Shown here piece after piece: positions 31,663-54,328 of a stretch of 60,793 nt of DNA. Below the pieces are notes generated by a model. That model was not told the DNA's origin. It saw only the letters and a program-made list of their open reading frames with translations, and made no database searches. This DNA comes from an uncultured Rhodobacterales bacterium. Its GTDB lineage: Bacteria; Pseudomonadota; Alphaproteobacteria; Puniceispirillales; GCA-002684695. Location: the NCBI GenBank assembly GCA_964502335.1, contig CAZCWO010000001.1, positions 1-60,793 on the forward strand, read 5' to 3'. The first letter of the stretch is position 1. Every line of letters begins with the position of its first letter. The translations under genes were made by a program, and so were the position numbers.

Positions 31663-34600
31663 CTACAAATCAATCTCAATCATACCACCATCTTCTGAAG
31701 CGCGGCTCTTGCATATAATAATTTGTGTCTCTTTTTGCTTTTTGGAAAGAACAAAGTCCCTATGCTCAACTTCACCTGATATTAAACCACATTTACAAAC
31801 CCCACATATTCCGTCAGAGCACTTAACATCAATTTGATAACCATTTTCGTTTAAAATCTCTGCTGCGGTTTTATCCAAAGGAACCAAAAACTCTTTTTTG
31901 GATCTAGATAATTTTAATCTAAAATCATAATTAATATAATCTGGTTCATCAGGAACTGAAAAATACTCTAAATGTCTGGCTTCTTCTGGAAAACCAATAT
32001 CCCCTGCAACTTCGTTTAAAGAACTCATATAGTTTTCAGGTCCACATATATATATTTGAAAACCTTTTTTATAGCTTCCTAAAATTGAACGAAAATCTGC
32101 GCGTGTGCCTTGGTCAGTAAAATAAAGGAAAACCTTATCAGACCATGAAACTGACTTCAAGTCTTGCAAATAACCAGCATCCTCCATAACACTTGTGGAA
32201 TAATGAACTTCAAAATCTTTTCCCAAAGCTTGTAGCCGATGAGCAAAGGCAATCATAGGGGTTATCCCGATACCACCTCCCATTAAAAAGGTCTTTGGCT
32301 TATTTTCATCTAATTCAAAATGGTTGATAGGTTTCGAAATAAAGATTTTTCGTCCTTTTGAAAATATGCGGTGCATCATTTTTGAGCCACCACGCCCTTC
32401 TTCTTCTCGTAACACACCAATCTGATATTTTGAACGATCTGCAGGATTACCAGACATTGAATATTGTCTTAAAAATTCAGGGGCCACAACAATATCAATA
32501 TGTGCACCGGCCTCCCATTTGGGAAGATCTGATCCATTTGGTGTTTTAAATTCATATTTTGTAACTAGACTAGACATTTCTTCAACTTTGCTGACAACAA
32601 CCTGAATAACAGGTGAATTACTCGAGACATGGTATTGATGTAAATGCTCTGTTTCATTTCGACTGAGTTTGATTTTATATTCTTCTGCCGTAATCATTGC
32701 TTGATACGCCTCAATTCCAGCCTCACGGTCCATAAGAAATGGGTATGGCCATGGATGTGGAGCAAGGTTTGCAGGATAAACAGCTAAAGTTTGGTCTTCA
32801 TATTTTAAATTAAGGTCGAGTTGAAGCCCCCTTCGATTAATCGGGTTACGACTTGGTCGATAACCACCATCTTCATAAAGCTCAATATCCCACCACCATT
32901 TTTTAATATCATTGAGACTTCCTCTACCTAAGTAATCATCTAACTTTGCGAGAGGTTTTGCTAGTTGCGGAATGTTCGATGCAGCCCATCGAAAAGGGGC
33001 TTCTGCAAATAAACCCTCCAGGTTCCACGGACATGTTTTCATACATCGACCACACATTGAACCGCCATCTGTTGTGATACGATAAGTAGCACATTTTTGA
33101 CTATCTGACTTCCAAATTTCATATCCGTTAAACATTAACTTCGGCCCTGCCGTGATCGCTCCCGATGGACATTCACGGGCACATTTATTGCAATTTTCAC
33201 AAAAATTCTGCATACCAAAATCTATTGGTTTATCGAATTCTAGAGGCATATCTGTTGTAACAACACCAGACTTTAAGCGCGGTCCAAGATATGGATTTAA
33301 AATGACTTCACCTATACGACTAACCTCACCTAACCCAGAAAGCAATAATAGCGGTGGCTGAAGAACTTCTCCATCCATTACAGTATGTGACTTTGCTTTA
33401 AAGCCTAAATTTCGAATTTGCTTTGCAATGACCCCGCCTAATAGCGAGAACCTTAAATAGGCACGCATTGATTGCGCAACCGAAATCCAATCATCACCTG
33501 AGGCTCCCTCCATCGTTTCATACCCCTGATCAATGATCATCGATATTGCATTATTATGCTCAGGGTTAATTGGTTCGCCCCTCGCGTCATGACTGTACCA
33601 TGTCCAATCAGGACACCTAGAAATCCCAACGGCGTCTATACCTAAAAAATAACTAGCAGCCTTAATATTTTCTGCATTTCGTTTCGCATCAGCAGGTCGA
33701 GTACCGTCTATATTAGGCTCCCCGTCTTGAAGCAAAACAAATGCACCGAGTGCACGCCGTTGGGCGTACGAAGGAGCAGATTTTCTTGCATAGTGGCCAC
33801 CTTTTGCGCCTTCTTGATTGTTTTTACCCATGTCCCCAAACTGAGCACGAGCAAACATATCAGCTCGTTTTGGAACTCGTGCAACATTTTCTTCATCAAT
33901 AAACGTCGTTGGTTTGTCAACTCTCTTCAACCTTTCAAAAGGATAGGCGCCATCAATAAACTGCCTATAGGCATATGGATCTCGGTTCATAATGTTTTTT
34001 GAAAAACCCATTCCCAACCACCACGCAGGACCTTTAGTTTTAAACCATGGCTGCTCTTTATCTGGTGCCAAAGGATGGTCAATTGCTAAATCGATTGAGC
34101 AGGTCACAGCTGAAAAGCCAAAGTTTGTTCCTATATATGGAGCAACTAATTCATTGTCCTCGTGCCAAACAAGCCCAGATGCAACAGACAATTGGTTAAT
34201 ATCAACATCTGAAGCTGAACCCGAATGCGATTTAGCATCGTACCCTAACAAACGTATGTAATTGGCAATAACCGCAGCTGTTTCATTAGCTCGTAAACTA
34301 GCTCGGTGAGGCAATGCTTCTTGCAACCAATCAACACCTGGTTCATCTTTACGAATATCTCTCGGGTTCTCATATAAGAAAATAATTGCGTGCGTGTGTC
34401 CGTCTATTGTCGTTGGAGGCGCTTCCATTGAATCTTTTAGATCTGCCATAATCATATCAATACCAGCAGCCAATGTTTTAGTTTGCCGAGTTCTAAGAGC
34501 TTCAGCTAAACTCTCTATATCAGGATTCATAATGGCTTTGGCAAGAATTGCGGTTGAAGGTAATTGGCAAATTCCAACCATTGATGCATCGCAAAAATAT

Positions 34601-34872
34601 CCAAATGCTTTCAAATGATTTGCCCGTTCTTGAGGGTCTGAAGGAATCTGGGCGGTAACTTTGTTAACTAAACCATCACGAATTGCATCCATCATCGCTT
34701 GGTACTCAAGCATTGCGTTAACAATATTTTCAGGCGCCTCTTCTCTGTGAAAAGACAATGGTTTCATTGGGATTACAGAGTTTAAGTCTGGCATAGTGCC
34801 TCGTTTTAAACTTTCAATCGGGTAAGGCCCCAAATGAACAGGGCGTTTCTTATCAGAAAAAAAACGTTTCAC
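31663..34872 (-). CDS. reductive-dehalogenase-like (RdhA-type, 2x[4Fe-4S]) module fused to an FNR-like flavin/NAD(P)H module and a plant-type [2Fe-2S] ferredoxin (PDR-type reductase)
   Basis: 1069 aa with a GTG start. It has CENCNKCARECPSGAI (DNA about 33150-33215) and CGRCMKTCPW (about 33020-33060). The C-terminal 320 aa or so (DNA about 31663-32640) carry RQYSMSG, GGGIGITPM and CSDGICGVCKC..C. There is no twin-arginine signal and no rdhB-like anchor nearby. Confidence 0.8.
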   Translation of the reverse strand: MKRFFSDKKRPVHLGPYPIESLKRGTMPDLNSVIPMKPLSFHREEAPENIVNAMLEYQAMMDAIRDGLVNKVTAQIPSDPQERANHLKAFGYFCDASMVGICQLPSTAILAKAIMNPDIESLAEALRTRQTKTLAAGIDMIMADLKDSMEAPPTTIDGHTHAIIFLYENPRDIRKDEPGVDWLQEALPHRASLRANETAAVIANYIRLLGYDAKSHSGSASDVDINQLSVASGLVWHEDNELVAPYIGTNFGFSAVTCSIDLAIDHPLAPDKEQPWFKTKGPAWWLGMGFSKNIMNRDPYAYRQFIDGAYPFERLKRVDKPTTFIDEENVARVPKRADMFARAQFGDMGKNNQEGAKGGHYARKSAPSYAQRRALGAFVLLQDGEPNIDGTRPADAKRNAENIKAASYFLGIDAVGISRCPDWTWYSHDARGEPINPEHNNAISMIIDQGYETMEGASGDDWISVAQSMRAYLRFSLLGGVIAKQIRNLGFKAKSHTVMDGEVLQPPLLLLSGLGEVSRIGEVILNPYLGPRLKSGVVTTDMPLEFDKPIDFGMQNFCENCNKCARECPSGAITAGPKLMFNGYEIWKSDSQKCATYRITTDGGSMCGRCMKTCPWNLEGLFAEAPFRWAASNIPQLAKPLAKLDDYLGRGSLNDIKKWWWDIELYEDGGYRPSRNPINRRGLQLDLNLKYEDQTLAVYPANLAPHPWPYPFLMDREAGIEAYQAMITAEEYKIKLSRNETEHLHQYHVSSNSPVIQVVVSKVEEMSSLVTKYEFKTPNGSDLPKWEAGAHIDIVVAPEFLRQYSMSGNPADRSKYQIGVLREEEGRGGSKMMHRIFSKGRKIFISKPINHFELDENKPKTFLMGGGIGITPMIAFAHRLQALGKDFEVHYSTSVMEDAGYLQDLKSVSWSDKVFLYFTDQGTRADFRSILGSYKKGFQIYICGPENYMSSLNEVAGDIGFPEEARHLEYFSVPDEPDYINYDFRLKLSRSKKEFLVPLDKTAAEILNENGYQIDVKCSDGICGVCKCGLISGEVEHRDFVLSKKQKETQIIICKSRASEDGGMIEIDL

Positions 34873-35403: not shown

Positions 35404-35507
35404 TAGGATCCCAAAATTAAATTTTTATGTTAATAATAGAGTTTTAATGGGTAAATTACTTGACTTTGGGATCCATTTGTGAGTCATTAGAGCAGGGGGA
35501 TCCCATT
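35404..35507. promoter_or_regulatory. three GGATCCCA-type palindromic sites upstream of the TAXI-TRAP operon
   Basis: The sites are TAGGATCCCAAAA (core 35406-35413), TGGGATCCA (35467-35475, directly after a TTGACT hexamer at 35460-35465) and GGGATCCCA (35497-35505). Confidence 0.5.
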
Positions 35508-35679: not shown

Positions 35680-36735
35680 ATGCTCAAGACACTTAAAACT
35701 GCGGCACTTGCCGCAACACTATTTTTCACTGGAGCCATAGCAAACGCAGAGGTTAATCTTACTGCTCATACTTCTGGGACTGGCACGGCGGTTCAAATCA
35801 ATGTGACAGCATTAGGTGAATTTGCCGCTGATCGTGGTATCGCAAACATTCAAATAAAGGACGGACAGACTGGAAGCAAATATAACGTGGCTTTGGCTGA
35901 AGGAAAAATTGACATCGCAAGTCTCCCGTTTGTATTACCATTCGTTTTATCAAAAGCTGTTGGACCTTATTCCAAACTTGACAAAGAGGAGGCTGCTGAA
36001 CTTGCCTCAAATATACGGTTACTTTACCCATTCACTTTAAGTATATTCACGTTGTATGCCTATGATGCCAAGGGTATAAACGGTTTTGACGGCTTGAAAG
36101 GACGCAAGATTTTAAACGGCCCGCCAAGAGGTACCGCTTCTCTTAACTCCCGTAGCCTTATTCAGCTTATGTCTGGTTTGAAGGCGGATGAAGATTATGA
36201 ATCGGTCACAGTCAACTGGAACCAGATGCCTGCAGCGATCATTGATGGAACAGTAGATGCTGTTCTTGTTCCTGCAATGTTTCCTGGTCCTAGGGTCACC
36301 CGAGCCAGTGCAGCTGGTGCAATGACCATGTGGTCAATGCCTAAGGATACCTTTGAGGCAGAAGCTTCACAAAAGTTTCTCAATAAACCTGGTTCTACAC
36401 CGTATATTGTTCCACTAGCAGATATTCAAGCCGCTATGGGATCCGGTTGGACGATCATTTCAGAAGATGATAAGTTCCGAGGAAAGGCGGTTCCAGGTGG
36501 TGACATGGTCAACAAGAGTATGGACGAAGAGTTGGCCTATCAACTCACCATGGCGCACATCGAGAACATCGATAGCATAAAAAAGTTAGCACCTTTTATG
36601 AAAACCTTAAACTTTGGAGTGATGGATCGCAGTGTTCATGGTCTCTGTGGCGCAAACAAAGTAAAATTTCATCCAGGAGCTGTGAGGGCTTGGGAGGAAT
36701 CTGGTTACAAAGTTCCAGACTGTGCCAAGCCGTAA
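35680..36735 (+). CDS. TAXI-family TRAP transporter solute-binding protein
   Basis: The ORF is open from 35590. The ATG at 35680 follows GGAGG by 7 nt and gives the signal peptide MLKTLKTAALAATLFFTGAIANA. The mature part is TAXI/NMT1-like. Confidence 0.75.
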   Translation: MLKTLKTAALAATLFFTGAIANAEVNLTAHTSGTGTAVQINVTALGEFAADRGIANIQIKDGQTGSKYNVALAEGKIDIASLPFVLPFVLSKAVGPYSKLDKEEAAELASNIRLLYPFTLSIFTLYAYDAKGINGFDGLKGRKILNGPPRGTASLNSRSLIQLMSGLKADEDYESVTVNWNQMPAAIIDGTVDAVLVPAMFPGPRVTRASAAGAMTMWSMPKDTFEAEASQKFLNKPGSTPYIVPLADIQAAMGSGWTIISEDDKFRGKAVPGGDMVNKSMDEELAYQLTMAHIENIDSIKKLAPFMKTLNFGVMDRSVHGLCGANKVKFHPGAVRAWEESGYKVPDCAKP

Positions 36736-36757
36736 TTATGACTTGAATTACTTTGAT

Positions 36758-36779
36758 GGGCGACTGAATGATGTCGCCC
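36758..36779 (+). terminator. intra-operon stem-loop (attenuator/terminator candidate) between the TAXI binding protein and the permease
   Basis: GGGCGAC (36758-36764), an 8-nt loop, then GTCGCCC (36773-36779), followed by ACTGTTTATGTT. It lies 23 nt after the SBP stop. Confidence 0.45.
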
Positions 36780-36827
36780 ACTGTTTATGTTGATCCTTGT
36801 TAGAAAATACTAAAGAATCATACTACA

Positions 36828-39182
36828 ATGAACAACCAAAAGAAAAACCAAACGAGGTCAAAAGATGATGACAGTGTTTTTATAGATCAGGTAGCGTATT
36901 GGTTGGCGCTACTGCTTGTCTTAGTCGGTCTTATTAACATAACTCCAGCAATTCCTGGTTGGGATGATCTCTGGAAAAATTTGACTGGGAATGACTTTTT
37001 CAAAATTAGGCGATATCCAACAGAATGGTTTTATCCCATCACATTTTTCTGGATGATGATGATTGTCGCACTAAAACAGTCAATGTGGAGAAGTTGGATT
37101 AAAAAAAATCCTATTATTAGAGGGTTGGGATTGTTGTTTGATATTGCATTGCTAATAGCTGCTGCTGCGATAGCATTAACTTACCTGATAGAAATTGAAG
37201 CAATTTGCCTCATCGATGTTTTTACTGGCGACAGAGAACGATTAGTAGCGAAAGCCTTGCAAGCTGAAATTGAATTTGCCGAGTTATATAGCCTACCTAT
37301 TCCGACCACAGCAGATGATCCAAGTTGCCAGAATACAACACAAAACTGGTTACTGCCCATCATGTTTGGTGCGGTTTTTATTTTTCTGGGTTACAATATC
37401 AAGGTATGGGGGTTTCCTTTAGTCATGGTATCGCTTCTAATCGCAACCTACACATTTGTCACGGTAATGAACTGGTATTTCTTTGGTACCGATCAAAACA
37501 AATATCTCGTTACGATCCTTAGTAGTGAAGAAGTTAGAACCCTTGGATCAGGTCGGGAGTTTGTATTGGACGCACTTATAAATCAAAATGCAGGATTATT
37601 GGGTCGTTTTATAAATATATTAATGCTGTTGGTATTTCCGTATATCATTTTGGGCGCCTTGTTTGGTCGTTGCGCTGGAGGGCAGGCGTTAATCAAACTG
37701 GCATTTATGTTGACACGAAAGTTAAGAGGTGGCCCAGCCCACGCCGCGATTGTATCTTCAGCACTCTTTGGCACTATAACGGGCGGTCCGGTTGTAAACG
37801 TTTTGTCAACTGGTGTTCTCACTATACCAATGATGGTGAAGCGCGGATTTTCAAAAGTATTTGCGGGTGGTGTTGAGGCCGCTGCCTCTTCTGGAGGAGC
37901 AATTATGCCACCAATTATGGGTGTGGCTGCCTTCGTCATGGCCTCATTGACAGGCGTTCCCTATAGAGAAATTATAATTGCTGCCATAATCCCAGCACTT
38001 TTCTATTTCTTAAGCTTATTTCTGTCCGTTGTCTTCCAAGCCCGTAAGCAGAATATTCAACCTGTGGGGGAGTTAACAGATGGGATGCGGATGAACAATC
38101 AAGACCGTCTGCACATTCTGCAGATATTTGGGCCAGTACTTCTGGTACTGGTTCTGCTTTTAACTCCAAAGGATAACGTCGCTTGCAGCTGGTTTTCGGT
38201 CATGCTTGGTTCTGTAGTTCAAATGAATGGAGGTGTTTGCGAAGTTACATCCATGCCATGGATAGTTGAACTTTTACAAAACACGGCTGGTGATGCTGGT
38301 GCTGCAGGTTGGTGGGCAGTAATGTTACTACTTCTTTTAATGTTTATAGATCGAGATTTTCGAACAAAACCGAGTAAAATTATTGATGCTTTATCTAAGG
38401 CTGGTTTTACGATCTCGACTCTCTTTCTGATGTTTCTTGCGGTGACAGTGATCGATGTTTGTCTTAATTTTACTGGTCTTGCCAAATTTGTTGCTGTCGA
38501 CGTCCTTAGTTTTTTAAAATCATTTGATGTCTCAAGTAGCTCAGCCATATTCCAACTATTCGCCCTTTTCTTGACAATGCTTTTGGCTATCTTGCTTGGC
38601 ATGGGAATGCCAGCTGCACCAGCCTATATCAATGTCGCACTTCTAATGGGTCCTATGCTAGTTGGTTTGGGTCTTGCCACTTTCACTGCGCATATGTTTG
38701 TGTTCTACTTTGCGGTTGCTTCAGCCATAACGCCGCCTGTGGCACTGGCTGCATTTGCAGCAACAACCATTACTCACCAGGATCCTATAAAGACCGGTTT
38801 CTCAGCAGTTAAATCAGGCATAGTAATGTTCACAATTCCATTTGTGTTTGCAATTTATCCGGAACTTCTTTTGATCAACCCAGCAGTAGTAGATCCCACT
38901 TCGGGGGAGTTTTTAGTGGGCTATGATGGTAGCATTGATGCCGTTTGGCTGTTGTTCCTAATTGCTCGGCTTGTCATAGCTCTTTATCTTGTAGCGAGCG
39001 CACTTGCAGCTTTTGATAGGAAAGCGCTTGGTTCAATTGAAATTCTAGTTCGCCTTGTAGTTGCGACCCTAATCCTGGCCAAACCGATGGAGATATTTGC
39101 TCCTGCAATTGCACTTAGTTTGGTGGTAATTGGGATCCACATATTTCGCCAGAAAAACACAACCGCCTACTTAAAAATTTAA
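36828..39182 (+). CDS. TAXI-type TRAP transporter fused permease (DctQ-like + DctM-like, 4TM/12TM fusion)
   Basis: 784 aa and highly hydrophobic. It has a diagnostic stretch: GGPAHAAIVSSALFGTITGGPVVNVLSTGVLTIPMMVKRGFSKVFAGGVEAAASSGGAIMPPIMGVAAF. Confidence 0.9.
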   Translation: MNNQKKNQTRSKDDDSVFIDQVAYWLALLLVLVGLINITPAIPGWDDLWKNLTGNDFFKIRRYPTEWFYPITFFWMMMIVALKQSMWRSWIKKNPIIRGLGLLFDIALLIAAAAIALTYLIEIEAICLIDVFTGDRERLVAKALQAEIEFAELYSLPIPTTADDPSCQNTTQNWLLPIMFGAVFIFLGYNIKVWGFPLVMVSLLIATYTFVTVMNWYFFGTDQNKYLVTILSSEEVRTLGSGREFVLDALINQNAGLLGRFINILMLLVFPYIILGALFGRCAGGQALIKLAFMLTRKLRGGPAHAAIVSSALFGTITGGPVVNVLSTGVLTIPMMVKRGFSKVFAGGVEAAASSGGAIMPPIMGVAAFVMASLTGVPYREIIIAAIIPALFYFLSLFLSVVFQARKQNIQPVGELTDGMRMNNQDRLHILQIFGPVLLVLVLLLTPKDNVACSWFSVMLGSVVQMNGGVCEVTSMPWIVELLQNTAGDAGAAGWWAVMLLLLLMFIDRDFRTKPSKIIDALSKAGFTISTLFLMFLAVTVIDVCLNFTGLAKFVAVDVLSFLKSFDVSSSSAIFQLFALFLTMLLAILLGMGMPAAPAYINVALLMGPMLVGLGLATFTAHMFVFYFAVASAITPPVALAAFAATTITHQDPIKTGFSAVKSGIVMFTIPFVFAIYPELLLINPAVVDPTSGEFLVGYDGSIDAVWLLFLIARLVIALYLVASALAAFDRKALGSIEILVRLVVATLILAKPMEIFAPAIALSLVVIGIHIFRQKNTTAYLKI

Positions 39183-39229
39183 TTACAAATTCTAAAATTA
39201 TATCCTAATAGGATAAGTTGGATAGAAAA

Positions 39230-40813
39230 ATGACTAATCAACCAAACTACATACTCTTCATTACCGACCAACAGCGGTTTGATTATCTCGGATGCTATGG
39301 TCATAAGATTTTGCGAACACCAAACATCGATGAAATGGCGTCAGAGGGTGTGGCCTATGATCGGTTTTACGTAGCATCACCAGTCTGCATGCCCAATCGT
39401 GCTAGTCTTATGACTTGCCGAATACCGTCAAGTCATGGTGTTAGATCCCTTGGTATTCCTTTAGGACATCAACATGTGACTTTTGTTGAAATGTTACGTG
39501 CTGCGGGTTATGACACTGCCTTGATTGGGAAAAGCCATATCCAGAACGTGACAGATTGGCCCACTCAGTTCGAACCACGTGAATATAGAAGTGGCTTTAC
39601 AACACCGCCCGAAGATTTGAAGCAAGCTATTCGAGCCGATCTTGACAACTCTAGTTATCAATATGAACAACAACGGTTTTGGGAGAAAGATAATCCAAAA
39701 GTAGCAATACCGTTTTATGGGTTTGAACACTACAATTCTGTTTTACGGCATGGAGCTAACAGCGGTGGTGATTTTGAACTCTGGCTCAAGAAGAATGCCC
39801 CAGAAATATTGAACTTGCGTGGTCGCAAGAACCAACTTCCACACAATTACACTTGCCCCCAAGCTATCCGAACAAAGATTCCCGAAGAGTATTATTCAAC
39901 GAGATATATTGCCAATCGGGCAAGTGAGTGGATCGAAAACCGAAAAGATAGTTCACAGCCATTTTTTCTGATGGTTTCCTTCCCGGATCCTCACCACCCG
40001 TTTACCCCACCCGGTAAATATTGGGATATGTACAAACCAGAGGATATGCCAGTGCCAATAGCTTATAAAATTAATGATTGGGATCCACCAAAATATGTGA
40101 AAATAGCAGAACGAGAGAGAGCTCGCGACAACTCTTTGGGTCAATATGCAGGATATTCTGTCGCTGTATCAAAACAGGAATCGATTGAAGCTCGCGCTCT
40201 GACATGTGGAATGATTACTATGATTGACGATGCGATTGGGCAGGTCAGAGCAGCGGCATTTAGTGCTGGCGTCACCGAAACCACTGTTCAAATATTTACT
40301 TCAGATCATGGTGACCATCTAGGCGACCACCGTCTGTTGTTTAAAGGTGCTGAGCAATATGACACGCTCACTCATGTTCCGTTTATCTGGGCTGATCCCA
40401 AAGGAGTGCAAGGCAAAAGGAGTGATGAAATCGCTCAAACTCATGATATTGGGTCGACAATCCTTGAGCATGCAAAAATAGAAGCACCTGATGGCATGCA
40501 GGGCCAGGTCATGTCCGTTGCTGGTGGAAAACGGCGTGAAGCTGCGTTGATACAATACGACACGCAACGTACTCAAGAGGCTTTCGGGCAAGAGCCACGT
40601 GTTCATACCATTATTTACGACCACTGGCGTTTATCTCTCTACCGCGGTATTTGCAAGAATGAGTTATTCAACCTCAAAGATGATCCGGGAGAAATGTATA
40701 ACCTATGGGACAGTATCGCTCATTCTGTGACCAAGAGTCAGTTGATTGAGAAGTTGGCAGAACTGGAAATAAACGCAATTGATAGGGTTCCACTGCCAAC
40801 TGCTCAGGCCTGA
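39230..40813 (+). CDS. formylglycine-type sulfatase (Cys-type), no signal peptide
   Basis: It starts MTNQPNYILFITDQQRFDYLGCYGH and has the sulfatase signature SPVCMPNRASLMTCR (CxPxR) and ..FTSDHGDHLGDH... The ORF track starts at a TTG at 39218, but I prefer the ATG at 39230. Confidence 0.9.
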   Translation: MTNQPNYILFITDQQRFDYLGCYGHKILRTPNIDEMASEGVAYDRFYVASPVCMPNRASLMTCRIPSSHGVRSLGIPLGHQHVTFVEMLRAAGYDTALIGKSHIQNVTDWPTQFEPREYRSGFTTPPEDLKQAIRADLDNSSYQYEQQRFWEKDNPKVAIPFYGFEHYNSVLRHGANSGGDFELWLKKNAPEILNLRGRKNQLPHNYTCPQAIRTKIPEEYYSTRYIANRASEWIENRKDSSQPFFLMVSFPDPHHPFTPPGKYWDMYKPEDMPVPIAYKINDWDPPKYVKIAERERARDNSLGQYAGYSVAVSKQESIEARALTCGMITMIDDAIGQVRAAAFSAGVTETTVQIFTSDHGDHLGDHRLLFKGAEQYDTLTHVPFIWADPKGVQGKRSDEIAQTHDIGSTILEHAKIEAPDGMQGQVMSVAGGKRREAALIQYDTQRTQEAFGQEPRVHTIIYDHWRLSLYRGICKNELFNLKDDPGEMYNLWDSIAHSVTKSQLIEKLAELEINAIDRVPLPTAQA

Positions 40814-40824
40814 CAATAGGTGAA

Positions 40825-42102
40825 TTAACTATTTTCCTGTTCTAACTCTTTTGCGCATTGAATATAGTAATGCCTTGTAGGGCAGTTGATTTGACTAACG
40901 GCATGCTCTCTTAGAATTTTGGCTTTAATTTTTTTGGTACTTTGGGCTTCTTGGTCAGAAAAAATCAACCTATCAACAAGTTGTAATGCCCATTGATAGT
41001 CTTTATCTGATCTAGCCTTCTGTACTTCGGCCATAACGATTTCCGGGCCTCCGGCAAGCTTAATGAACCTCTCCGCCTCTTCCCTTTGGGACAACCGACC
41101 AAGTGATGTCGGGTTGCCATCGAACCACCCCATAGTTCCAACGAAATATGCACGTACCGCATAATCAATACGCCCATAATATTCTCGTAAATATGATTTT
41201 TTAGCTAGTTTGGAGGGCAATTTCACACTATGTGCGAGCTCATCGATGGTAAGACCCGCATCCATTCCATTGCGCGTTTCATCTATCACGTGACGAATGG
41301 CGTCACGGTAGTCGGTCAATATTTCTGTGATAGTTTCTGCACCAAAAAGCGCCTCGGTATGGCCAGGTGCCAGTATCTCTGGTTCAAACGACATAAGAAG
41401 ATCCATTGTGTCAGCCCAGGTGTCAAAATCCCTATATTCAGTCCCACGTATGGCGTAAAGATTTGGGAAAGACCTGTAAAAATTATCTCCGCTGATCAAT
41501 AGTTTTTTTTCAGGGTACCAAACAACCATGTGATCAGGAGTTTCGCCGGGCGCCATTACTAATTCAAGATCAATCCCACAGATCTTTAGCTTTTCACCCT
41601 CCTCTCCAATCTGCCGTGTCGGGGCCAGAGCCCCTGCACCCATTCCTTTCATTGGCCGATCACCAGGTCCTATACCAATGCCAATGATCTCCTCAGGGTA
41701 AGATAGGCCAATGCCAAATTGACGCTTGGTTCTTAACTGCATTGCTTTGGCTGGGCGTGGGTGAGCGGTCGCGACAATTAAAGAGTCTTCGGAGGATTTA
41801 TTGCTCGCCAGAATCTCTGGGTTGCAACCGTCGGCAAAAACGCTTGCTCCTGATACGTGATCGCGATGTGAATGCGTGAGAATGATGGCCTTAACGGGTA
41901 GATCCGTGATTTTTCGAAATTCAGTCAAAATATTTTGTGCCGCAGCGGTTGTCTCCGTCGTATCGACGATTATTATACCGTCAGCTCCAACCAACATGTA
42001 TACATTTGAGGCTGCAAACCCAAAAGCTTGATAGACGTTATCTACAAGTTGAACAACTTTTTTTTGAAAGTATTTTGGGTGTGTTTTTAGTTCTGGATGC
42101 AT
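40825..42102 (-). CDS. metallo-beta-lactamase-fold alkyl/aryl-sulfatase (SdsA1/BDS1-like), lacking the C-terminal SCP2-like domain
   Basis: It has ILTHSHRDHVSGA (HxHxDH) and an alkyl-sulfatase dimerisation-domain pattern, GWFDGNPTSLGRLSQREEAERFIKLAGG..DYQWALQLVDRLIF. The ATG at 42102 is preceded by AGGGAGA. The ORF track's TTG at 42177 is probably an over-extension. Confidence 0.85.
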   Translation of the reverse strand: MHPELKTHPKYFQKKVVQLVDNVYQAFGFAASNVYMLVGADGIIIVDTTETTAAAQNILTEFRKITDLPVKAIILTHSHRDHVSGASVFADGCNPEILASNKSSEDSLIVATAHPRPAKAMQLRTKRQFGIGLSYPEEIIGIGIGPGDRPMKGMGAGALAPTRQIGEEGEKLKICGIDLELVMAPGETPDHMVVWYPEKKLLISGDNFYRSFPNLYAIRGTEYRDFDTWADTMDLLMSFEPEILAPGHTEALFGAETITEILTDYRDAIRHVIDETRNGMDAGLTIDELAHSVKLPSKLAKKSYLREYYGRIDYAVRAYFVGTMGWFDGNPTSLGRLSQREEAERFIKLAGGPEIVMAEVQKARSDKDYQWALQLVDRLIFSDQEAQSTKKIKAKILREHAVSQINCPTRHYYIQCAKELEQENS

Positions 42103-42281
42103 CTGTATTCTCCCTTTAAAATGATAGGCAGTCGGGTACTCAGTAATAGTTGTTTCCTGGATCCTGTATTGCTTCAAATTAAATCTTTGTAATCCATTGG
42201 ATTATGGCATCACAGAATTGGGTTTCTAAGAAAAGATTTTTACTGCCCACACTTTGTTATATTAATATTTATTTTTATCTA

Positions 42282-42359
42282 TTTGGGATCCTGAACGCAA
42301 GAAAAATTAACAATATTGAAAATTTTTACCTTGAGTTATTGCGTTGGGATCCCAATAAT
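42282..42359. promoter_or_regulatory. GGATCCCA-type operator sites and a sigma70-like promoter in the divergent sulfatase intergenic region
   Basis: The sites are TGGGATCC (42284-42291) and the perfect 12-bp palindrome TTGGGATCCCAA (42344-42355). The palindrome lies inside TTGAGT (42331-42336) - 17 nt - AATAAT (42354-42359), which faces the sulfatase gene at 42444. Confidence 0.5.
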
Positions 42360-42443
42360 GCAATATTGTCATAGTGCTGAACTTTTGTTTTACAAACTAG
42401 GTAAACTTATTAAATAATGAGTTCATGTAGATCTTGAGGGAAT

Positions 42444-44090
42444 ATGGGACGCAAAAACATACTTTTCATTATGTGCGATCAGCTTAGATTTGATTACTTA
42501 GGTTGCTCAGGGCACCCGAGCATAAAGACACCCAACATTGACTCATTAGCAGCACGTGGCGTTAGGTTTAGTAACGCATATTGCCAATCGCCGATCTGTG
42601 GTCCATCGCGAATGAGCGCTTACACGGGGCGATATGTGTCCTCACACGGTTCTTCTTCTAATTTTGCACCACTCCGCGTTGGTGAAAAGAACATTGGACA
42701 TTATTTGAACCCGCTCGGTGTACGGACCATTTTAGTAGGCAAAACCCATATGGTTGCCGATAAAGAGGGCATGCAAAGACTAGGTGTGGATCCAAAAAGT
42801 GACATCGGGGTTCACCACGCTCAAGCTGGATTTGAGGCCTATGAACGAGACGATGGGGTGCACCCTGATTCAATGGTCAATCCCGAACTTGCTTATAATA
42901 AATACCTGAAATCAAAGGGATATACCGAGGATGATAATCCTTGGCATTGGGCGGCCAATTCTGTTGATACCGAGAGAGGAGTTCGATCGGGGTTCTTTAA
43001 TGATCGAGTTGGTTTACCTGCCAGAGTTTCTGATGAAAACTCTGAAACACCTTATATTACTCGGCGCGCAATAGATTTTCTGTCTGAAGATGACAGTGAA
43101 GCTCCGTGGCTATTACACCTTTCCTTCATCAAACCACACTGGCCATACGTTGCGCCTGCTCCATACAACAACATGTATTCTGTGAATGACATAATCCCAG
43201 CAATCAAATCTGAATCTGAATTGAAAAATACGAATCAACTTATGAAACATTTCATGGATCGGGTTGCTGGAAAAACTTTTGGAAAGGAGGCTACTCGAGA
43301 AACTGTAATTCCAGTCTATATGGGACTTATTTCCCAGATTGATGATCAGCTTGGGATTTTGTTTGATTTCATGGATAAAAATGGTTTGCTAGAAAACACC
43401 TTGATTGTTTTCACATCTGATCATGGAGACTATCTTGGTGATCATTGGATGGGTGATAAGGATTATTTTCATAATCCAGCTGTTAAAATTCCCTTAATTA
43501 TAGTGGATCCAAGTGAAGCGGCAAATAGGACAAGAGGATCTGTGGATACGTCGTTGGTCGAGTTGATCGATTTAATCCCTACTTTTGTTGAATTTGCGGG
43601 TGGCGCTATTGCAGATCATATCTTGGACGGTCGGTCGTTAATGAAAAAAATTCTAGGCGCAGAGCACGACTGGCGAAATTATGTTATTAGTGAATATGAT
43701 TACTCTACCCAGGTTTTTCGTCCTGAAACTGGAAGAACGCCTCTCAACTGCCGATCCTACATGATTGCAAATGAAAATTGGAAATACATATTTGCCCCGG
43801 GGTATCCGCCTGTGCTCTTCGATCTTATAGGCGATCCTGATGAATTGAACGATCTTGGCCGTAGTCCGGAGTATACGGATATTCGTCGTTTAATGTTTAA
43901 CCAACTAGCTGAATGGTCATTACAATACCGGCAACGCGAAACTTGGTCAGAAGAACATAATATTCACATGACCGGGATGGAAGAGCAACTAGGAGTCCTC
44001 ATAGGTTATTGGGATGAAAAAAGTGCGGAGGGCAAAAATCCAAAAATACTACCTAAGCGAAAACCATTAAAGGCAACACGAACAGACTAA
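42444..44090 (+). CDS. formylglycine-type sulfatase (Cys-type), no signal peptide, second copy
   Basis: It starts MGRKNILFIMCDQLRFDYLGCSGH and has the signature SPICGPSRMSAYTGR (CxPxRxxxxTG) and ..FTSDHGDYLGDH... Confidence 0.9.
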   Translation: MGRKNILFIMCDQLRFDYLGCSGHPSIKTPNIDSLAARGVRFSNAYCQSPICGPSRMSAYTGRYVSSHGSSSNFAPLRVGEKNIGHYLNPLGVRTILVGKTHMVADKEGMQRLGVDPKSDIGVHHAQAGFEAYERDDGVHPDSMVNPELAYNKYLKSKGYTEDDNPWHWAANSVDTERGVRSGFFNDRVGLPARVSDENSETPYITRRAIDFLSEDDSEAPWLLHLSFIKPHWPYVAPAPYNNMYSVNDIIPAIKSESELKNTNQLMKHFMDRVAGKTFGKEATRETVIPVYMGLISQIDDQLGILFDFMDKNGLLENTLIVFTSDHGDYLGDHWMGDKDYFHNPAVKIPLIIVDPSEAANRTRGSVDTSLVELIDLIPTFVEFAGGAIADHILDGRSLMKKILGAEHDWRNYVISEYDYSTQVFRPETGRTPLNCRSYMIANENWKYIFAPGYPPVLFDLIGDPDELNDLGRSPEYTDIRRLMFNQLAEWSLQYRQRETWSEEHNIHMTGMEEQLGVLIGYWDEKSAEGKNPKILPKRKPLKATRTD

Positions 44091-44198: not shown

Positions 44199-44969
44199 TT
44201 AGGGTTCTTTGGTGGGGTTGCGATTTACAAGCTCAAACCCAGAATAACTGATTAAATCTGTTAGGCTTAGTTCTTCATGCCTCTCTTCAAATAGCTCAAT
44301 ATATTCGATTATAATGTTTAAATGTTCCCGCATCACACCTTCTGCACGAACTCCATCCCCTGCTCGGATCGCCTCATAAATCACCTTGTGCTGGGCGTTG
44401 CCTAGTCTCAACCGGAATAGGGTGCGCTCAATGCCTTTTTTTGTTCCGATAGTGGTTCGGTCAAAAGCCATTGAACCGACCGCAAGCATTGGAAGATAGT
44501 TAATTTGTTTGCAAGTGAAGTCGACAAAGTCATTGCCACAACCATCAAGGATAGTTTGGTGGAACACAGCATTTGCTTGTTGTAAATTTCTAATAGACGT
44601 ATCATCCAATACTCCTATATTTAAGAAGCGCTCAATTGTGTCTATAGCAGTTTTTAGATTCGGGAGAAAATTGACGCGAACAGATGACTGAGCCATAAGC
44701 CGTGCTGCAAGACTTTCTAAATGACCGAGAACCAATACAGCTTGTTTGACATCAGAAACGGTTGGGCTTTTTACAAAATAACCACGACCTTTGCCACGCA
44801 GAATAACACCTTCTCTCACTAGTAATCGGATAGCAAGTCGGACAGGAGTGCGCGAAACACCGTAGAAATCACAAAGCTGAGCTTCTGAGAGACGCTCGCC
44901 CGCCGAATGGGCGCCAACCAAAATGTCGTGCCGTATCTTGTCAGCCAGTTCAGTATCAATCGATTTCAT
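44199..44969 (-). CDS. GntR-family transcriptional regulator (FCD subfamily)
   Basis: It has an HTH region ..LCDFYGVSRTPVRLAIRLLVREGVILRGKGRGYFV.. and a helical C-terminal domain. Confidence 0.9.
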   Translation of the reverse strand: MKSIDTELADKIRHDILVGAHSAGERLSEAQLCDFYGVSRTPVRLAIRLLVREGVILRGKGRGYFVKSPTVSDVKQAVLVLGHLESLAARLMAQSSVRVNFLPNLKTAIDTIERFLNIGVLDDTSIRNLQQANAVFHQTILDGCGNDFVDFTCKQINYLPMLAVGSMAFDRTTIGTKKGIERTLFRLRLGNAQHKVIYEAIRAGDGVRAEGVMREHLNIIIEYIELFEERHEELSLTDLISYSGFELVNRNPTKEP

Positions 44970-44985
44970 GACCCTAATGTTAATA

Positions 44986-45133
44986 AATGGGATCCCAAAG
45001 TCAACATAAACTAAGAAATTATGAAATTATTAACATAATAGCTTGCAATGGGATCCCAATTATGGAATCAGTTATTGTGTAACCTTATTAATAAGACTGC
45101 TTTGGTTCTCAAATAATTTTTTAGGATCCCAAA
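44986..45133. promoter_or_regulatory. three GGATCCCA-type palindromic sites in the GntR/GST divergent promoter region
   Basis: The sites are TGGGATCCCA (44988-44997, 19 nt upstream of the GntR ATG), TGGGATCCCA (45049-45058) and TAGGATCCCAAAA (core 45124-45131). Confidence 0.55.
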
Positions 45134-45168: not shown

Positions 45169-45933
45169 ATGGTAGTGATCAATCCAACGAACAAATCCGT
45201 AGAGTCATATAAAGGACTTCACCTTTACCACGGCGATATATCGAATTGCTCAATGAGAGTTCGCATGGCATTGATAGAAAAGGACCTTCCTTGGACAAGT
45301 CATCATATTGACCTGAAGAAAAAAGAAAATATTACGGATGATTATTTTGGAATTAATCCCAATGGTCTTGTTCCGACTCTGGTTGACAATGGTATAGTTC
45401 ATATCGAGTCTAACGATATTATTAATTATCTCGATGAAACGTATCCCCAACCTTCTTTACGCCCCCAGAATGGAGAAAATAAGATGCTGGAATGGTTAAA
45501 ATTAGCAGCGTCACTTCATGTCCCAGCGATCAAGCCATATGTCTATGCGACAATGATTCAGAAAAAAGTGAAAAAAACCGCCGAGGAACAAAAAAAATAC
45601 GACGAACTTCAAAAAAATAAGGAGCTAAAGGAATTCCACTCAAAACATGCTGGTGATAAATCTTTTGGCAATGCCAGCATTGCCAAATCTGTTGAAATTC
45701 TCGAGGGTTGTTTTAACAAGCTAGAGAAAACATTAGAGGGGCGTGAATGGATCATGGGCGATAAATTTACATTGGCCGACATTTCCTGGATCCCGCTGCA
45801 TTTTGTACTCGTTGGATGTGGTTATCCATTTGAAAAGTATTCAAACATTTCCAGATGGTCTGAAAACTGTAGAAGTAGACCAAGTTTTAAGGAGGGAGTG
45901 TTGAAATGGTGCCCCGATTTCTCAAAGGTTTAA
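45169..45933 (+). CDS. glutathione S-transferase family protein with a long inter-domain insertion (GDAP1/LigF-like architecture)
   Basis: The ATG at 45169 is preceded by AAGGGAGA. The N-domain reads LHLYHGDISNCSMRVRMALIEKDLPW..INPNGLVPTLVDNGIVHIESNDIINYLDE. The ORF-track start at 45043 would run through the operator sites. Confidence 0.8.
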   Translation: MVVINPTNKSVESYKGLHLYHGDISNCSMRVRMALIEKDLPWTSHHIDLKKKENITDDYFGINPNGLVPTLVDNGIVHIESNDIINYLDETYPQPSLRPQNGENKMLEWLKLAASLHVPAIKPYVYATMIQKKVKKTAEEQKKYDELQKNKELKEFHSKHAGDKSFGNASIAKSVEILEGCFNKLEKTLEGREWIMGDKFTLADISWIPLHFVLVGCGYPFEKYSNISRWSENCRSRPSFKEGVLKWCPDFSKV

Positions 45934-45978: not shown

Positions 45979-47418
45979 ATGGAAACTAAAACTAAAAGCA
46001 AACCACTTAAGCATTTTATAAACGGAGAGTGGGTCGAAGCAGAAACTGGCAATATTTTTGACGTTATGAACCCTCTCGATGATAGCCTTTACGCGCATGC
46101 GGCAAAAGGAACTGAAAGTGATATTCGAAAGGCTGTATCTGCAGCCAAATCAGCTTTCCCTGAATATCGAGAAACATTGCCTTCAGAACGGGAGCGCATG
46201 CTTCTCCGAATTGCTGAGATCATGGAAGAACGTAAGTCTGAACTTGTGGATTGTCTGATCGATGAGATTGGGTCACCGATACAAAAAGCAATGTTTGAAT
46301 TTACTAAGGGTCTTACTATGTTGCGTGCCGCTGCTGGATTGTGCCGCAATGTACGTGGTGAAACGATCCCATCTGATGCGCCTGGAAAGTTTTCGATGTC
46401 TATAAGGGAGCCATTGGGTGTCGTTGCAGTTATTACGCCGTTCAACGTACCACTGATCAAAACCACCCGGCTTGTCGCCAATGCTTTATCGCTAGGAAAT
46501 ACCGTCGTTCATCTGCCTTCAGAATTGGCGCCACATCTTACGGTTCTTTTCGCTGAAATCGTTGCCGACGCAGGATTTCCAGCGGGCTCTTATAATGTTG
46601 TAACTGGTTATGGTCATGAAATAGGTGATGCCCTTACCAGCCATAAAGACGTAGATTTTGTTACCTTCACAGGATCTACAGTCGTAGGGCAACACATCAG
46701 TGAAATTTGTGCAAAAAATAAAACTCCTAACACTCTTGAGCTTGGAGGCAAGAGTCCAACTGTTGTTCTGGCTGATGCAGAACTTGATAAAGTCATACCA
46801 GTCGCAGCTCGATCAATATTCATGTTTGCTGGGCAGGCATGTATCGGGTCTAGCCGGTTTTATGTCGAGCGCTCAATCTACGATGAATTTGTGAAACGAT
46901 TTGCCATAGTGGCCTCAAAGGTTGGGATGGGTAACCTACGTGACCCCAACACAGTAATCGCGCCGATAATTTCAGACAGGCAACGTACCCGTATTAAAGA
47001 TCATATTGCCGATGCCGTCTCAAAGGGTGCGAAGGTGGTGGTTGGTGGTGAATGGAAGGGGAATCGTTGTCAACCGACGTTGCTGACCGGTGTCTCTGAG
47101 GAGATGACCGTCTGCAAATCTGAAACATTTGGGCCAGTTACATCCATTTATCCCATTGATAGCTATGAAGAAGGCCTAAAAAAAGCTAATGATACCGAAT
47201 ATGGTCTCTCATCTGCAATTTTTACTAATGATATAAAACGTGCCTTTCACTTTGCTAGAAATATTGAAGCAGGCATGTGCCATATAAACGGCCCGACAAT
47301 CCATGATGAAGCGCATGTGCCGTTTGGTGGCAATGGAGAAAGTGGCGTTGGCCGTGAAGGTACGGATGCAGATATGGAAGCAATGACGGAACTAAAATGG
47401 GTCACGGTACAATTATGA
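45979..47418 (+). CDS. NAD(P)+-dependent aldehyde dehydrogenase
   Basis: 479 aa, with ELGGKSP (catalytic Glu), GQACIGSSR (catalytic Cys) and ETFGPV. Confidence 0.95.
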   Translation: METKTKSKPLKHFINGEWVEAETGNIFDVMNPLDDSLYAHAAKGTESDIRKAVSAAKSAFPEYRETLPSERERMLLRIAEIMEERKSELVDCLIDEIGSPIQKAMFEFTKGLTMLRAAAGLCRNVRGETIPSDAPGKFSMSIREPLGVVAVITPFNVPLIKTTRLVANALSLGNTVVHLPSELAPHLTVLFAEIVADAGFPAGSYNVVTGYGHEIGDALTSHKDVDFVTFTGSTVVGQHISEICAKNKTPNTLELGGKSPTVVLADAELDKVIPVAARSIFMFAGQACIGSSRFYVERSIYDEFVKRFAIVASKVGMGNLRDPNTVIAPIISDRQRTRIKDHIADAVSKGAKVVVGGEWKGNRCQPTLLTGVSEEMTVCKSETFGPVTSIYPIDSYEEGLKKANDTEYGLSSAIFTNDIKRAFHFARNIEAGMCHINGPTIHDEAHVPFGGNGESGVGREGTDADMEAMTELKWVTVQL

Positions 47419-48236
47419 CATATACACTTTATCATCACGGATCTTCCGTTTGTGCCGCCAAAGTAAGATTAGCGATGGACGAAAAGGGTCTTGAATGGGA
47501 TGGCGTTTACATTGACATCCTTAAAGGTGAGCAATTTGACCCAGAATATCTTAAACTAAATCCCAAAGGTCTGGTGCCAACCTTGATACACGATGAAACA
47601 GTCATTCCTGATTCCACTGTAATTATAGAATATTTAGACCAAATTGAACCTGAAACTAGCATTCATCCAACGGATCCTTGGGAACGTGCGCAATCCAGAT
47701 ATTGGACTAAAGCAGTTGATGAGGATCTTCATCCAGCTTGTGGTGCAGTTACTTTTGTATGTTCGCATAGGCACACTGTCTTAAAAAACCTTGGGCCGAA
47801 GGGGATAAAGAAATTTTTAGCCTCAACCCCTACTTTTTCAGTTACATCAAATTGGAAGGATCAGAAGGACGGGTTTATTAGATATGGATTTGATGCGCCC
47901 GGCGCTATAGATAAAATCAAATTATATGATAATTATCTCCACAAGATGGAGAAAGCGTTAAAAGGAGGGAATGATTGGCTAGTGGGTAATAAGTTCATGA
48001 TCGCTGATCTTGCCATGACACCATACGTCAATCGACTAGCCATGATGTCTATGCGTGATATGTGGGAAAAAGGCCGCTTACCTAATTTAGAAAAATGGTT
48101 CGCCCGAGTGGAAGCACGCCAAAATTTCAAGAAGTGCTTGATCGATTGGGTACCAGAAGATCTAACAAACGATTTGCGAGAAAATGGTGCCAAAAGTTGG
48201 CCAGAGGTTGCAAAAATTCTTGAAATCAAAATCTGA
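47415..48236 (+). CDS. glutathione S-transferase family protein (GDAP1/LigF-like architecture), second copy
   Basis: The ATG at 47415 overlaps the ALDH stop (ATGA). It has LYHHGSSVCAAKVRLAMDEKGLEW..LNPKGLVPTLIHDETVIPDSTVIIEYLD. Confidence 0.85.
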   Translation: MTYTLYHHGSSVCAAKVRLAMDEKGLEWDGVYIDILKGEQFDPEYLKLNPKGLVPTLIHDETVIPDSTVIIEYLDQIEPETSIHPTDPWERAQSRYWTKAVDEDLHPACGAVTFVCSHRHTVLKNLGPKGIKKFLASTPTFSVTSNWKDQKDGFIRYGFDAPGAIDKIKLYDNYLHKMEKALKGGNDWLVGNKFMIADLAMTPYVNRLAMMSMRDMWEKGRLPNLEKWFARVEARQNFKKCLIDWVPEDLTNDLRENGAKSWPEVAKILEIKI

Positions 48237-49305: not shown

Positions 49306-49369
49306 AATAAATTAACATAAAATTAAAACTAGACAATTTATTTATATGATAGAAAGAAAGGAGCATTTG

Positions 49370-49768
49370 ATGACCCAACGCGATTATGATGATGTGCCCG
49401 GAACCTACGTTTTGGATAGCCGAAGTTACCGCAAAGGGTATAGTCTCAACATGTTTTTGATGACACTGAACAAGTCTGTTCACCGTGATGAGTTTGCTTT
49501 GAATGAAAATGGCTATCTTGATAAGTTTAATGTGTCAAAAGAGCAAAAACAGGCTGTTATAGAACGTGACTATTTGCAGATGCTTAAACTTGGCGCAAAT
49601 GTCTACTATACTTTCAAACTCGTCAGCCATGACCGTCTCCAACCACAATATATGTATGGCAAAATGAGTGATCCAGAACTGAGTTTTGAGGAATTTCAGC
49701 AGATGATGCTATCAGGTGGAAGATCAATAGAGGGCAATCGAAGTAAAAAGGAGAAGAAAAATGGCTAG
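49370..49768 (+). CDS. ligA: protocatechuate 4,5-dioxygenase alpha subunit
   Basis: It starts MTQRDYDDVPGTYVLDSRSYRKGYSLNMFLMTLNK, a LigA-type N-terminus. AAGGAG lies 8 nt upstream of the ATG at 49370. It overlaps ligB by 8 nt. Confidence 0.9.
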   Translation: MTQRDYDDVPGTYVLDSRSYRKGYSLNMFLMTLNKSVHRDEFALNENGYLDKFNVSKEQKQAVIERDYLQMLKLGANVYYTFKLVSHDRLQPQYMYGKMSDPELSFEEFQQMMLSGGRSIEGNRSKKEKKNG

Positions 49769-50600: not shown

Positions 50601-50624
50601 GATTTACCTATAGGAACAAATACA

Positions 50625-51578: not shown

Positions 51579-51584
51579 TAAGTA

Positions 51585-53593: not shown

Positions 53594-53594
53594 A

Positions 53595-54323: not shown

Positions 54324-54328
54324 AACTA

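Follow-up and report, generated by a model that had tools for sequence, protein, structure and literature searches.

Several described systems resemble parts of a gene cluster at positions 35,680 to 44,090 of contig CAZCWO010000001.1, from an uncultured Rhodobacterales bacterium (assembly GCA_964502335.1; GTDB lineage Puniceispirillales, GCA-002684695). The whole stretch that was read, positions 1 to 60,793 of this contig, is referred to here as the window. The cluster encodes an importer of the tripartite ATP-independent periplasmic (TRAP) type with a TAXI-family binding protein, two type I (S1) sulfatases, and a metallo-beta-lactamase (MBL) fold hydrolase. TAXI-TRAP systems with known ligands bind glutamate or dicarboxylates (for example PDB 1US5, 8S4J and 9IBO), and the searchable literature yielded no TAXI-TRAP system that binds a sulfate ester. 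Among sulfatases, the closest precedents are BetC (SulfAtlas S1_12) of choline-O-sulfate use, the arylsulfatases SpAS1 and SpAS2 of Silicibacter (Ruegeria) pomeroyi (4UPI, 4UPL), which are the sister group of the phosphonate monoester hydrolases (PMHs), and the alkylsulfatases SdsA1, Pisa1 and YjcS (SulfAtlas S3). For the neighboring genes, the closest precedent is the lignin-fragment pathway of Sphingobium sp. SYK-6. Each part is of a known kind: TRAP uptake, sulfatases of the S1 and S3 families, and LigAB catabolism. Their combination was not found described: no account of such a system appears in the searchable literature on TAXI or TRAP transporters with sulfatases, SAR116 sulfatases, zosteric acid degradation, or bromophenol sulfate with dehalogenases.

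We estimate a probability of roughly two in three (about 0.65) that a repressor-controlled regulon for the use of a small sulfate-ester anion has its core at this locus. The ester would most likely be a phenolic or benzylic compound that carries sulfate and possibly halogen. The first three genes of the locus form a triad on the plus strand that consists of the 351-residue putative TAXI-family solute-binding protein (35680..36735), a fused 784-residue DctQ-DctM-type TRAP permease (36828..39182) that begins 92 nt after the TAXI gene ends, and a leaderless Cys-type S1 sulfatase, sulf1 (39218..40813). The gene for the MBL hydrolase (40825..42177, minus strand) is divergent from that of the second leaderless Cys-type S1 sulfatase, sulf2 (42444..44090, plus strand). 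A preliminary description of the window, made from the sequence alone, had listed the binding protein, the fused permease, the two sulfatases with CMPNR and CGPSR signatures and the MBL hydrolase, and all five genes are present as it placed them.

The association between importer and sulfatase is conserved across genomes. We collected loci anchored on sulf1 from species-representative genomes, requiring at least 60% identity to sulf1 and the presence of upstream sequence. The fused permease lies directly 5' of sulf1 in all 34 of these loci, and the TAXI and permease genes together precede it in 27 of the 28 that have enough flanking sequence. Conversely, sulf1 comes right after the permease in 22/23 informative metagenome loci anchored on the TAXI gene. 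Carriers are labeled as Paracoccaceae or roseobacters (Planktotalea frisia SH6-1, HTCC2083, IMCC1909, Silicimonas, Boseongicola), SAR116/Puniceispirillaceae, and other Alphaproteobacteria, and several loci (L070, L115-L118, L120 and L144) share their gene order with the window. Homologues less close to sulf1 (50-57% identity) occur beside another TAXI-TRAP system in Chelativorans or beside TctC receptors in Rhodoplanes and in freshwater and soil relatives, so that in these loci, too, a leaderless sulfatase is paired with predicted secondary uptake of an organic anion (carboxylate). The preliminary description had proposed that an organosulfate is imported and then desulfated in the cytoplasm. 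This logic gains support from the strict synteny of binding protein, permease and leaderless sulfatase across genomes, and from two further TAXI-TRAP-sulfatase operons in the genus that have TauE-type anion exporters beside them.

The binding protein begins at an ATG (35680) preceded by a GGAGG site, and its N terminus is a hydrophobic, classical signal peptide (MLKTLKTAALAATLFFTGAIANA), with residues 24-351 as the predicted mature protein. It matches Pfam NMT1_3 (E = 1.7e-19; 71 bits versus a cut-off of 27) and scores 76.8 bits against TIGR02122, below the cut-off of 84.35. The permease matches DctM and exceeds the cut-off of TIGR02123 (350.7 versus 320.65 bits).

Both S1 enzymes have PF00884 matches (E = 1.6e-48 for sulf1 and 4e-44 for sulf2), with catalytic domains that begin at residues 4-9. 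Because its homologues have 527 residues, the probable start of sulf1 is placed at ATG 39230, which gives a protein of this length. The nucleophile motifs are CMPNR in sulf1 (Cys53 in the 527-residue numbering, codon 39386-39388) and CGPSR in sulf2 (Cys52, codon 42597-42599). Other catalytic and metal-binding residues are found in ITDQ, GKSH (Lys-Ser-His) and SDHGD in sulf1 and, by alignment to SpAS1, in CDQL, GKTH (Lys100-Thr-His102) and SDHGD in sulf2. The two proteins are only 27% identical to each other. Sulf2 belongs to the SpAS1/SpAS2 arylsulfatase clade (E = 8e-181 and 606 bits to 4UPI; E = 1e-169 to 4UPL), which gives its chemistry rather than its substrate, since no physiological substrate is known for SpAS1 or SpAS2. 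The best solved matches of sulf1 are weak (7OZ8, E = 5e-43; 4UPI, E = 2e-42), and its close homologues number in the thousands among marine Alphaproteobacteria. It is a distinct S1 subfamily whose gene always comes right after the TAXI-TRAP permease. Neither protein reaches the cut-off of the choline sulfatase model for BetC (TIGR03417, 433.45 bits), with scores of 167.9 bits for sulf1 and 215.7 for sulf2.

A different chemistry could be suspected for these two enzymes. If they were promiscuous PMH-like hydrolases of phospho- or phosphono-esters, the locus would serve phosphorus acquisition or the use of phosphonate esters. The highest-scoring NCBIfam model for sulf2 is indeed PehA (302.8 bits), at a score far under the 900-bit cut-off that sulf1 likewise falls well short of. 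The next solved relatives of sulf2 are the PMHs 2VQR and 2W8S, and the GntR-type regulator encoded nearby weakly resembles regulators of phosphonate utilization. However, these PMHs score about 230 bits against sulf2 (E = 1e-66 to 1e-67), compared with 606 bits for SpAS1, and the active sites also disagree. A His two residues after the Lys is a hallmark of arylsulfatases (Lys101/His103 in SpAS1), whereas PMHs have Tyr followed by Thr or Asp (Tyr105/Thr107 in RlPMH; PMC5488252). Sulf2 shares the GKTHM segment of SpAS1 where RlPMH has GYTTT. SpAS1 itself is reported to act on sulfate monoesters with a kcat/KM that exceeds by orders of magnitude those for phosphonate monoesters or phosphodiesters. 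The preliminary description had held that its view would fall if the S1 enzymes grouped with PMHs or other non-sulfatase clades, but both carry Lys-x-His rather than Tyr-x-Thr/Asp and sulf2 groups with SpAS1 and SpAS2. With no pho or phn genes nearby and an S3 sulfatase homologue as the companion enzyme, we consider a role in phosphorus metabolism very improbable.

The companion MBL hydrolase has 450 residues and is SdsA1-like. It contains a Lactamase_B domain (E = 1.6e-21) and an Alkyl_sulf_dimr dimerization domain (E = 4.6e-41) that ends at residue 447. Only three residues remain after this domain, which leaves no room for a C-terminal SCP2-like domain. This agrees with the earlier view that the dimerization domain is kept and the SCP2-like domain is lacking. 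Alignment to SdsA1 covers residues 91-517 of that protein, with about 30% identity over 420 residues. Since it begins only at residue 91, the MBL protein is without the secretion signal and the N-terminal segment. All three hydrolases lack a hydrophobic N terminus, in line with the signal peptides that the preliminary description gave as missing. The MBL protein retains HxHxDH (as HSHRDH), the Glu-containing GE(T/S)P motif, the NLYxxRGxExRD block and the last metal-binding His. Directly before the NLY block, Pro replaces a His that has been proposed to be a general acid in Pisa1.

The protein was compared with 1.84 billion cluster representatives. All seven of its closest full-length representatives (41-51% identity) have 421-467 residues, and about 36 of the best 150 representatives have 415-480. 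Because the closest representatives are equally short, the tail-less form is a subfamily trait and not a truncation. One criterion for S3 alkylsulfatases asks for at least 30% identity over about 600 residues together with a C-terminal SCP2-like substrate-recruiting domain (PMC5066984), and the MBL protein, which lies outside it, is best described as S3-like.

A shared palindrome, TGGGATCCCA, connects these genes to others in the window. A pattern search finds six sites with at most one mismatch, compared with 1.7 expected by chance, and all six fall inside three promoter regions. The first region is 5' of the TAXI gene (35404..35505), with a weaker copy (35467) between two similar palindromes (35404 and 35496). 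The second is the divergent promoter region of the MBL and sulf2 genes (42284..42354), where the copy at 42345 is exact and that at 42284 is weaker. The third is a triple operator (44988..45131) between the gene for a GntR/FCD-family regulator (44199..44969, minus strand) and that for a glutathione S-transferase (GST1). Its sites at 44988, 45049 and 45122 are spaced by 61 and 73 bp. The GntR protein is the candidate binder of the palindromes, and its gene is syntenic in loci L017-L038, L070 and L115-L120.

These operators are conserved well beyond the window. Many other genomes, with GC contents of 41-63%, have the TGGGATCCCA motif at the same relative places, including 200-300 bp 5' of the TAXI gene, and the triple site before the GST operon recurs in many genomes with a GC content of 40-63%. 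The conserved operator ties the triad, the MBL gene, sulf2, the GntR gene and the following genes for GST, aldehyde dehydrogenase (ALDH), GST and short-chain dehydrogenase/reductase (SDR) into one predicted regulon. In roseobacters the operon behind the triple site is DctP-GST1-DctQ-DctM. In HTCC2083 (Rhodobacteraceae; L035, 14718-18564), for example, the GST1 orthologue lies between dctP and dctQ-dctM of a second TRAP system, and a gene for an EamA exporter comes next.

The genes that follow the triple operator suggest what becomes of the desulfated product. All are on the plus strand. GST1 (45169..45933; 254 residues from ATG 45169) is a paralogue of GST2 (27% identity) and a frequent neighbor of the triad. 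The ALDH (45979..47418) has 4-hydroxybenzaldehyde, salicylaldehyde, vanillin and benzaldehyde dehydrogenases as its top nine solved relatives. The best and only full-length solved match of GST2 (47397..48236) is the beta-etherase LigF (4XT0, E = 5.7e-25; residues 4-246 on 1-241). A classical, FabG-like SDR oxidoreductase (48252..49007) completes this group. The protocatechuate 4,5-cleavage genes begin shortly downstream (49346..55339) and comprise ligA (TIGR02792, 111.5 bits versus a cut-off of 108.6), ligB (NF009903, 407.9 versus 317), a ligC-like gene, a 4-oxalomesaconate tautomerase (NF033377, 444.4 versus 440), two Amidohydro_2 proteins (LigI/LigJ-like) and the LigK aldolase (TIGR02798, 360.2 versus 304.5).

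Other genomes place ring-cleavage genes next to the triad in different ways. L113-L118 and L120 have a ligCBA cluster in divergent orientation to the TAXI gene, and in L041 ligU-I-K-J lies upstream. In Chelativorans, a LigA fusion and LigB adjoin a TAXI-permease-sulf1 unit (57% identity for sulf1), with MTHFR-like and PurU genes. This LigA, from Chelativorans alearense (L042, 3491-5473), is fused to an alpha/beta-hydrolase domain (378 residues) and is encoded 5' of LigB, beside a LysR gene. The preliminary description had linked the sulfatases to the GST, ALDH and SDR genes by a shared operator and to protocatechuate cleavage by position, and both ties recur in other genomes. Directly 5' of the island that carries all of these genes is a self-sufficient reductive-dehalogenase-like gene (31663..34872, minus strand). 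This association also recurs: L116 has a 78% identical orthologue next to its copy of the island, and L129 has a 38% relative. Elsewhere in the present assembly, contig C201 (L091, 711-3482, minus strand) encodes a leaderless Cys-type sulfatase and then a 393-residue RdhA-like protein with a Dehalogenase domain and two 4Fe-4S motifs.

A non-aromatic substrate would fit some of these observations. If the locus served an aliphatic or hydroxy-acid ester instead, for instance a short alkyl sulfate (primary or secondary) or a hydroxy acid bearing sulfate, the SDR and ALDH would oxidize the released alcohol to an acid by the usual route, and the lig genes would be chance neighbors or part of a general catabolic island. 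The conserved set does include a homologue of the SdsA1 alkylsulfatases, the loss of SCP2 fits short, hydrophilic substrates, and the native sulfatase island of the genus contains the beta-oxidation-type genes ECH, HCDH and BKACE. It is hard to reconcile this idea with the recurrence of the LigAB association in independent lineages and arrangements, the place of sulf2 in an arylsulfatase clade, the aromatic aldehyde dehydrogenases that head the ALDH matches, and the recurrence nearby of RdhA-like genes, which act on halogenated aromatics. We therefore regard a non-aromatic substrate as unlikely, although it is the most plausible of the alternatives considered here.

For a sulfated phenolic or benzylic substrate, the genes suggest the following pathway. 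The periplasmic TAXI protein would capture the sulfated anion, and the fused TRAP permease would import it, driven by an ion gradient. Sulf1 would then remove sulfate in the cytoplasm, while sulf2 and the tail-less MBL hydrolase could act on further or chemically different (aryl versus alkyl or benzylic) sulfate groups. The two LigF-like GSTs, the SDR and the aromatic-type ALDH might turn the desulfated skeleton into a catechol acid, the ring of which would be opened by the adjacent LigAB protocatechuate 4,5-cleavage pathway. The released sulfate would be exported. From the genes themselves we infer which way transport runs, what the ligand is, what each enzyme does, in which order the steps follow and whether formylglycine is formed. 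A sulfated (halo)phenolic or benzylic compound, although speculative, would account for the presence of both aryl-type S1 and alkyl-type S3-like enzymes, and the three sulfatases may correspond to three types of sulfate ester. Sulfate is abundant in seawater, so desulfation in this setting would give access to carbon rather than scavenge sulfur. Marine metabolites on record include phenolic acids and coumarins that carry sulfate, as well as zosteric acid (PMC6278426).

Several observations weigh against this pathway or some part of it. A look for RNA sequencing runs that contain the locus returned none. The best PDB match of the binding protein among solved TAXI proteins has E = 8e-5, a divergence too great for its ligand to be inferred from them. 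The margin between aromatic and non-aromatic relatives of the ALDH is small (347 versus 322 bits). Both GSTs fall far under the cut-off of the beta-etherase equivalog NF042997 (440 bits), GST1 with only 26.4 bits. The SDR is generic, and a structure search with it was uninformative. The accessory genes are frequent neighbors of the triad, but their arrangement varies between genomes, and one TAXI-anchored locus (L121) has no sulf1. Among 400 genomes drawn evenly from the class, three carry distant TAXI paralogues (42% identity) that have no adjacent sulfatase among the query set, in a sample too small to judge the wider TAXI subfamily. Finally, sulf1 and sulf2 may be poorly matured in this host, in which neither a formylglycine-generating enzyme (FGE) nor an anaerobic sulfatase-maturating enzyme (anSME) was found.

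The preliminary description had remarked on the lack of a maturase in the window, and the gap extends to the genome. Neither PF03781 nor TIGR03942 has a match in the window or in the rest of the 2.23-Mb assembly, and phmmer searches with two genuine FGEs of order relatives find no match at E <= 10. Since the assembly is 93% complete, the absence of FGE and anSME is likely rather than proven. Seven congeners, with 2-11 sulfatases each, have no anSME, and only one has an FGE-like frame, of 120 residues. Within the order, several genomes that are 99-100% complete encode 3-6 sulfatases and no FGE, whereas others have a canonical FGE. Sulfatase-rich genomes without FGE are G000-G007, G009, G011, G014 and G017, and genomes free of sulfatases are G012, G015, G021, G024 and G039. 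The closest syntenic metagenome-assembled genome (MAG), that of L070 (1.9 Mb), also has no FGE match. Canonical FGEs (E = 1e-71 to 1e-74) are found in the island carriers HTCC2083, P. frisia, IMCC1909 and one SAR116 MAG. Because these roseobacter and SAR116 carriers have FGE, the maturase gap belongs to streamlined lineages and not to the island.

Where order relatives encode an FGE, its gene lies beside sulfatase genes (G019, contig C49) or 5' of a gene for a protein like those of the major facilitator superfamily (MFS; G013). The genus has an orthologue of this MFS-like gene about 13 kb from its sulfatase island. In the present assembly the end of contig C173 cuts this orthologue, and an FGE hidden there was considered and rejected, as six congeners have other genes at this position. 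A maturase among the recurrent neighbors of sulfatase genes was also sought, but only transporters, SDRs, ALDHs, RdhA-like proteins, TauE proteins and GSTs recur, and none is maturase-like. A mycobacterial FGE accompanied the production of SpAS1 (PMC5488252), and the present host shows no counterpart of it. Escherichia coli converts Cys-type sulfatases by a still unidentified machinery that has been called elusive, and a choline sulfatase with an unmodified Cys retains slow turnover (PMC6189696). Either a machinery of this kind or slow turnover by the unmodified Cys may explain the gap.

Composition sets the island apart from the rest of the genome. Between 35 and 60 kb its GC content is 41-44%, in the top 5% of 5-kb windows and well above the genome mean of 33.9%, and left of 24.5 kb it is about 29-35%. 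The island proteins share about 80% identity with their counterparts in a Paracoccaceae MAG of 41% GC. Contigs assembled from two runs of one study span both composition steps with even depth. In a run of another study, the region from 24.7 to 41 kb has a depth of about 8 and that from 21.5 to 24.1 kb is below 1.2. Since the left part is nearly missing from the latter run, the block to the right seems to have a different left flank elsewhere. Rather than a chimera made in assembly, it is probably a flexible island that moves horizontally.

Such an island might be a recent, poorly functional passenger from a higher-GC donor resembling roseobacters, with sulfatases that stay unmatured in a host without FGE. 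Its composition, its similarity to the Paracoccaceae MAG, the occurrence of the block right of 24.5 kb without the left flank of the window in one metagenome, and the presence of FGE in other carriers but not in this one would all follow. Yet the genes are all intact, the operators are retained, and two runs show even depth over the junctions. The genus also maintains 2-17 native, low-GC, leaderless Cys-type sulfatases without FGE or anSME and must therefore be able to use such enzymes. A poorly functional passenger is accordingly quite improbable in our view, less so than a role in phosphorus metabolism but more so than a non-aromatic substrate.

The native sulfatases of the genus are themselves associated with TAXI-TRAP genes. 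The present assembly has 17 PF00884 matches, and nearly all of the complete ones are Cys-type and leaderless. The sole sulfatase with a signal peptide is on contig C209, which is probably contamination (57% GC versus 34% for the genome). Congeners have a native, low-GC sulfatase island of about 35 kb (148-182 kb on C1 of G007; 130-162 kb on C16 of G004) with two operons, one TAXI-permease-sulfatase and the other TAXI-sulfatase-permease-sulfatase-sulfatase. These operons are flanked by genes for a TauE/SafE-type anion exporter, a pirin and a GST, and the island also contains molybdenum hydroxylase and PhyH genes in addition to the ECH, HCDH and BKACE genes mentioned above. In G004 it encodes a full-length SdsA1-type protein of 635 residues. 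The corresponding island is split over contigs C163, C213, C153, C142, C38 and C67 in the present assembly, where TauE paralogues are found near sulfatases on contigs C38 and C154. On contig C7 (L093, 5018-14118), a third pair of TAXI (51%) and permease (61%) paralogues lies between genes for an OYE-type flavin reductase and a TauD-family dioxygenase on one side and a GMC oxidoreductase on the other. This may be another locus for organosulfur uptake, with an oxygenolytic enzyme in place of a hydrolase.

These observations can be joined in a single, more ambitious interpretation with three parts. A genus with up to about 15 leaderless Cys-type sulfatases and neither FGE nor anSME would have a third formylglycine-forming system, long sought, or use the unmodified Cys, a TAXI-TRAP subfamily would be dedicated to the import of organic sulfate esters, and the substrate would be an algal metabolite of phenolic or benzylic type, sulfated and possibly brominated. 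Such a compound would fit the reductive dehalogenase, the aromatic ALDH and LigAB that recur as neighbors. That all three parts hold together is possible but doubtful.

Very few physiological substrates are known for TAXI-TRAP systems, for cytoplasmic S1 sulfatases of the SpAS/PMH group, or for tail-less S3-like hydrolases. Here, synteny and a common operator link all three classes to aromatic ring cleavage in many marine Alphaproteobacteria, which points to a bacterioplankton route for consuming the sulfated phenolics of algae and seagrasses. Because cultured carriers exist (Planktotalea frisia SH6-1, HTCC2083, IMCC1909), the system is directly testable. A genus with many sulfatases, a genome of about 2.3 Mb and no recognizable maturase also narrows the search for formylglycine machinery. 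If a third formylglycine-forming system does exist, the small genomes of this lineage would make it well suited to finding that system by clean comparison.

Compared with the described systems, the locus combines familiar components in a new setting. Like the TAXI-TRAP systems with known ligands, it has a fused permease, here with a secreted, putatively TAXI-type (NMT1_3) protein, but the binding protein resembles the solved ones only distantly and is strictly operonic with a sulfatase. Sulf2 aligns with SpAS1 and SpAS2 over its full length, with the CxPSR and GKTHM motifs, the SDHGD metal site, the C-terminal extension and the leaderless N terminus in common, and differs from them in its place within a TAXI-TRAP regulon. 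The MBL protein shares the fold, HxHxDH, the NLYxxRGxExRD block and the dimerization domain with SdsA1, Pisa1 and YjcS, but it is without their signal peptide, first 90 or so residues and SCP2 domain and has the His-to-Pro change before NLY. The equipment of SYK-6, with the SDR LigD, the GSTs LigE and LigF, the ALDH LigV and the ring-cleaving LigAB, is paralleled by an SDR, two GSTs, an aromatic-type ALDH and protocatechuate 4,5-cleavage genes. The differences are that the GSTs here score far below the beta-etherase cut-off and that sulfatases and a TAXI-TRAP importer are added. Finally, the use of choline-O-sulfate shares the overall logic of importing a small sulfate ester, using a leaderless Cys-type S1 enzyme to hydrolyze it in the cytoplasm, and oxidizing the product. 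In the present locus, however, uptake would be by TAXI-TRAP, sulf1 and sulf2 are far from the choline sulfatase model, and the neighboring genes are those of aromatic catabolism instead of bet genes.

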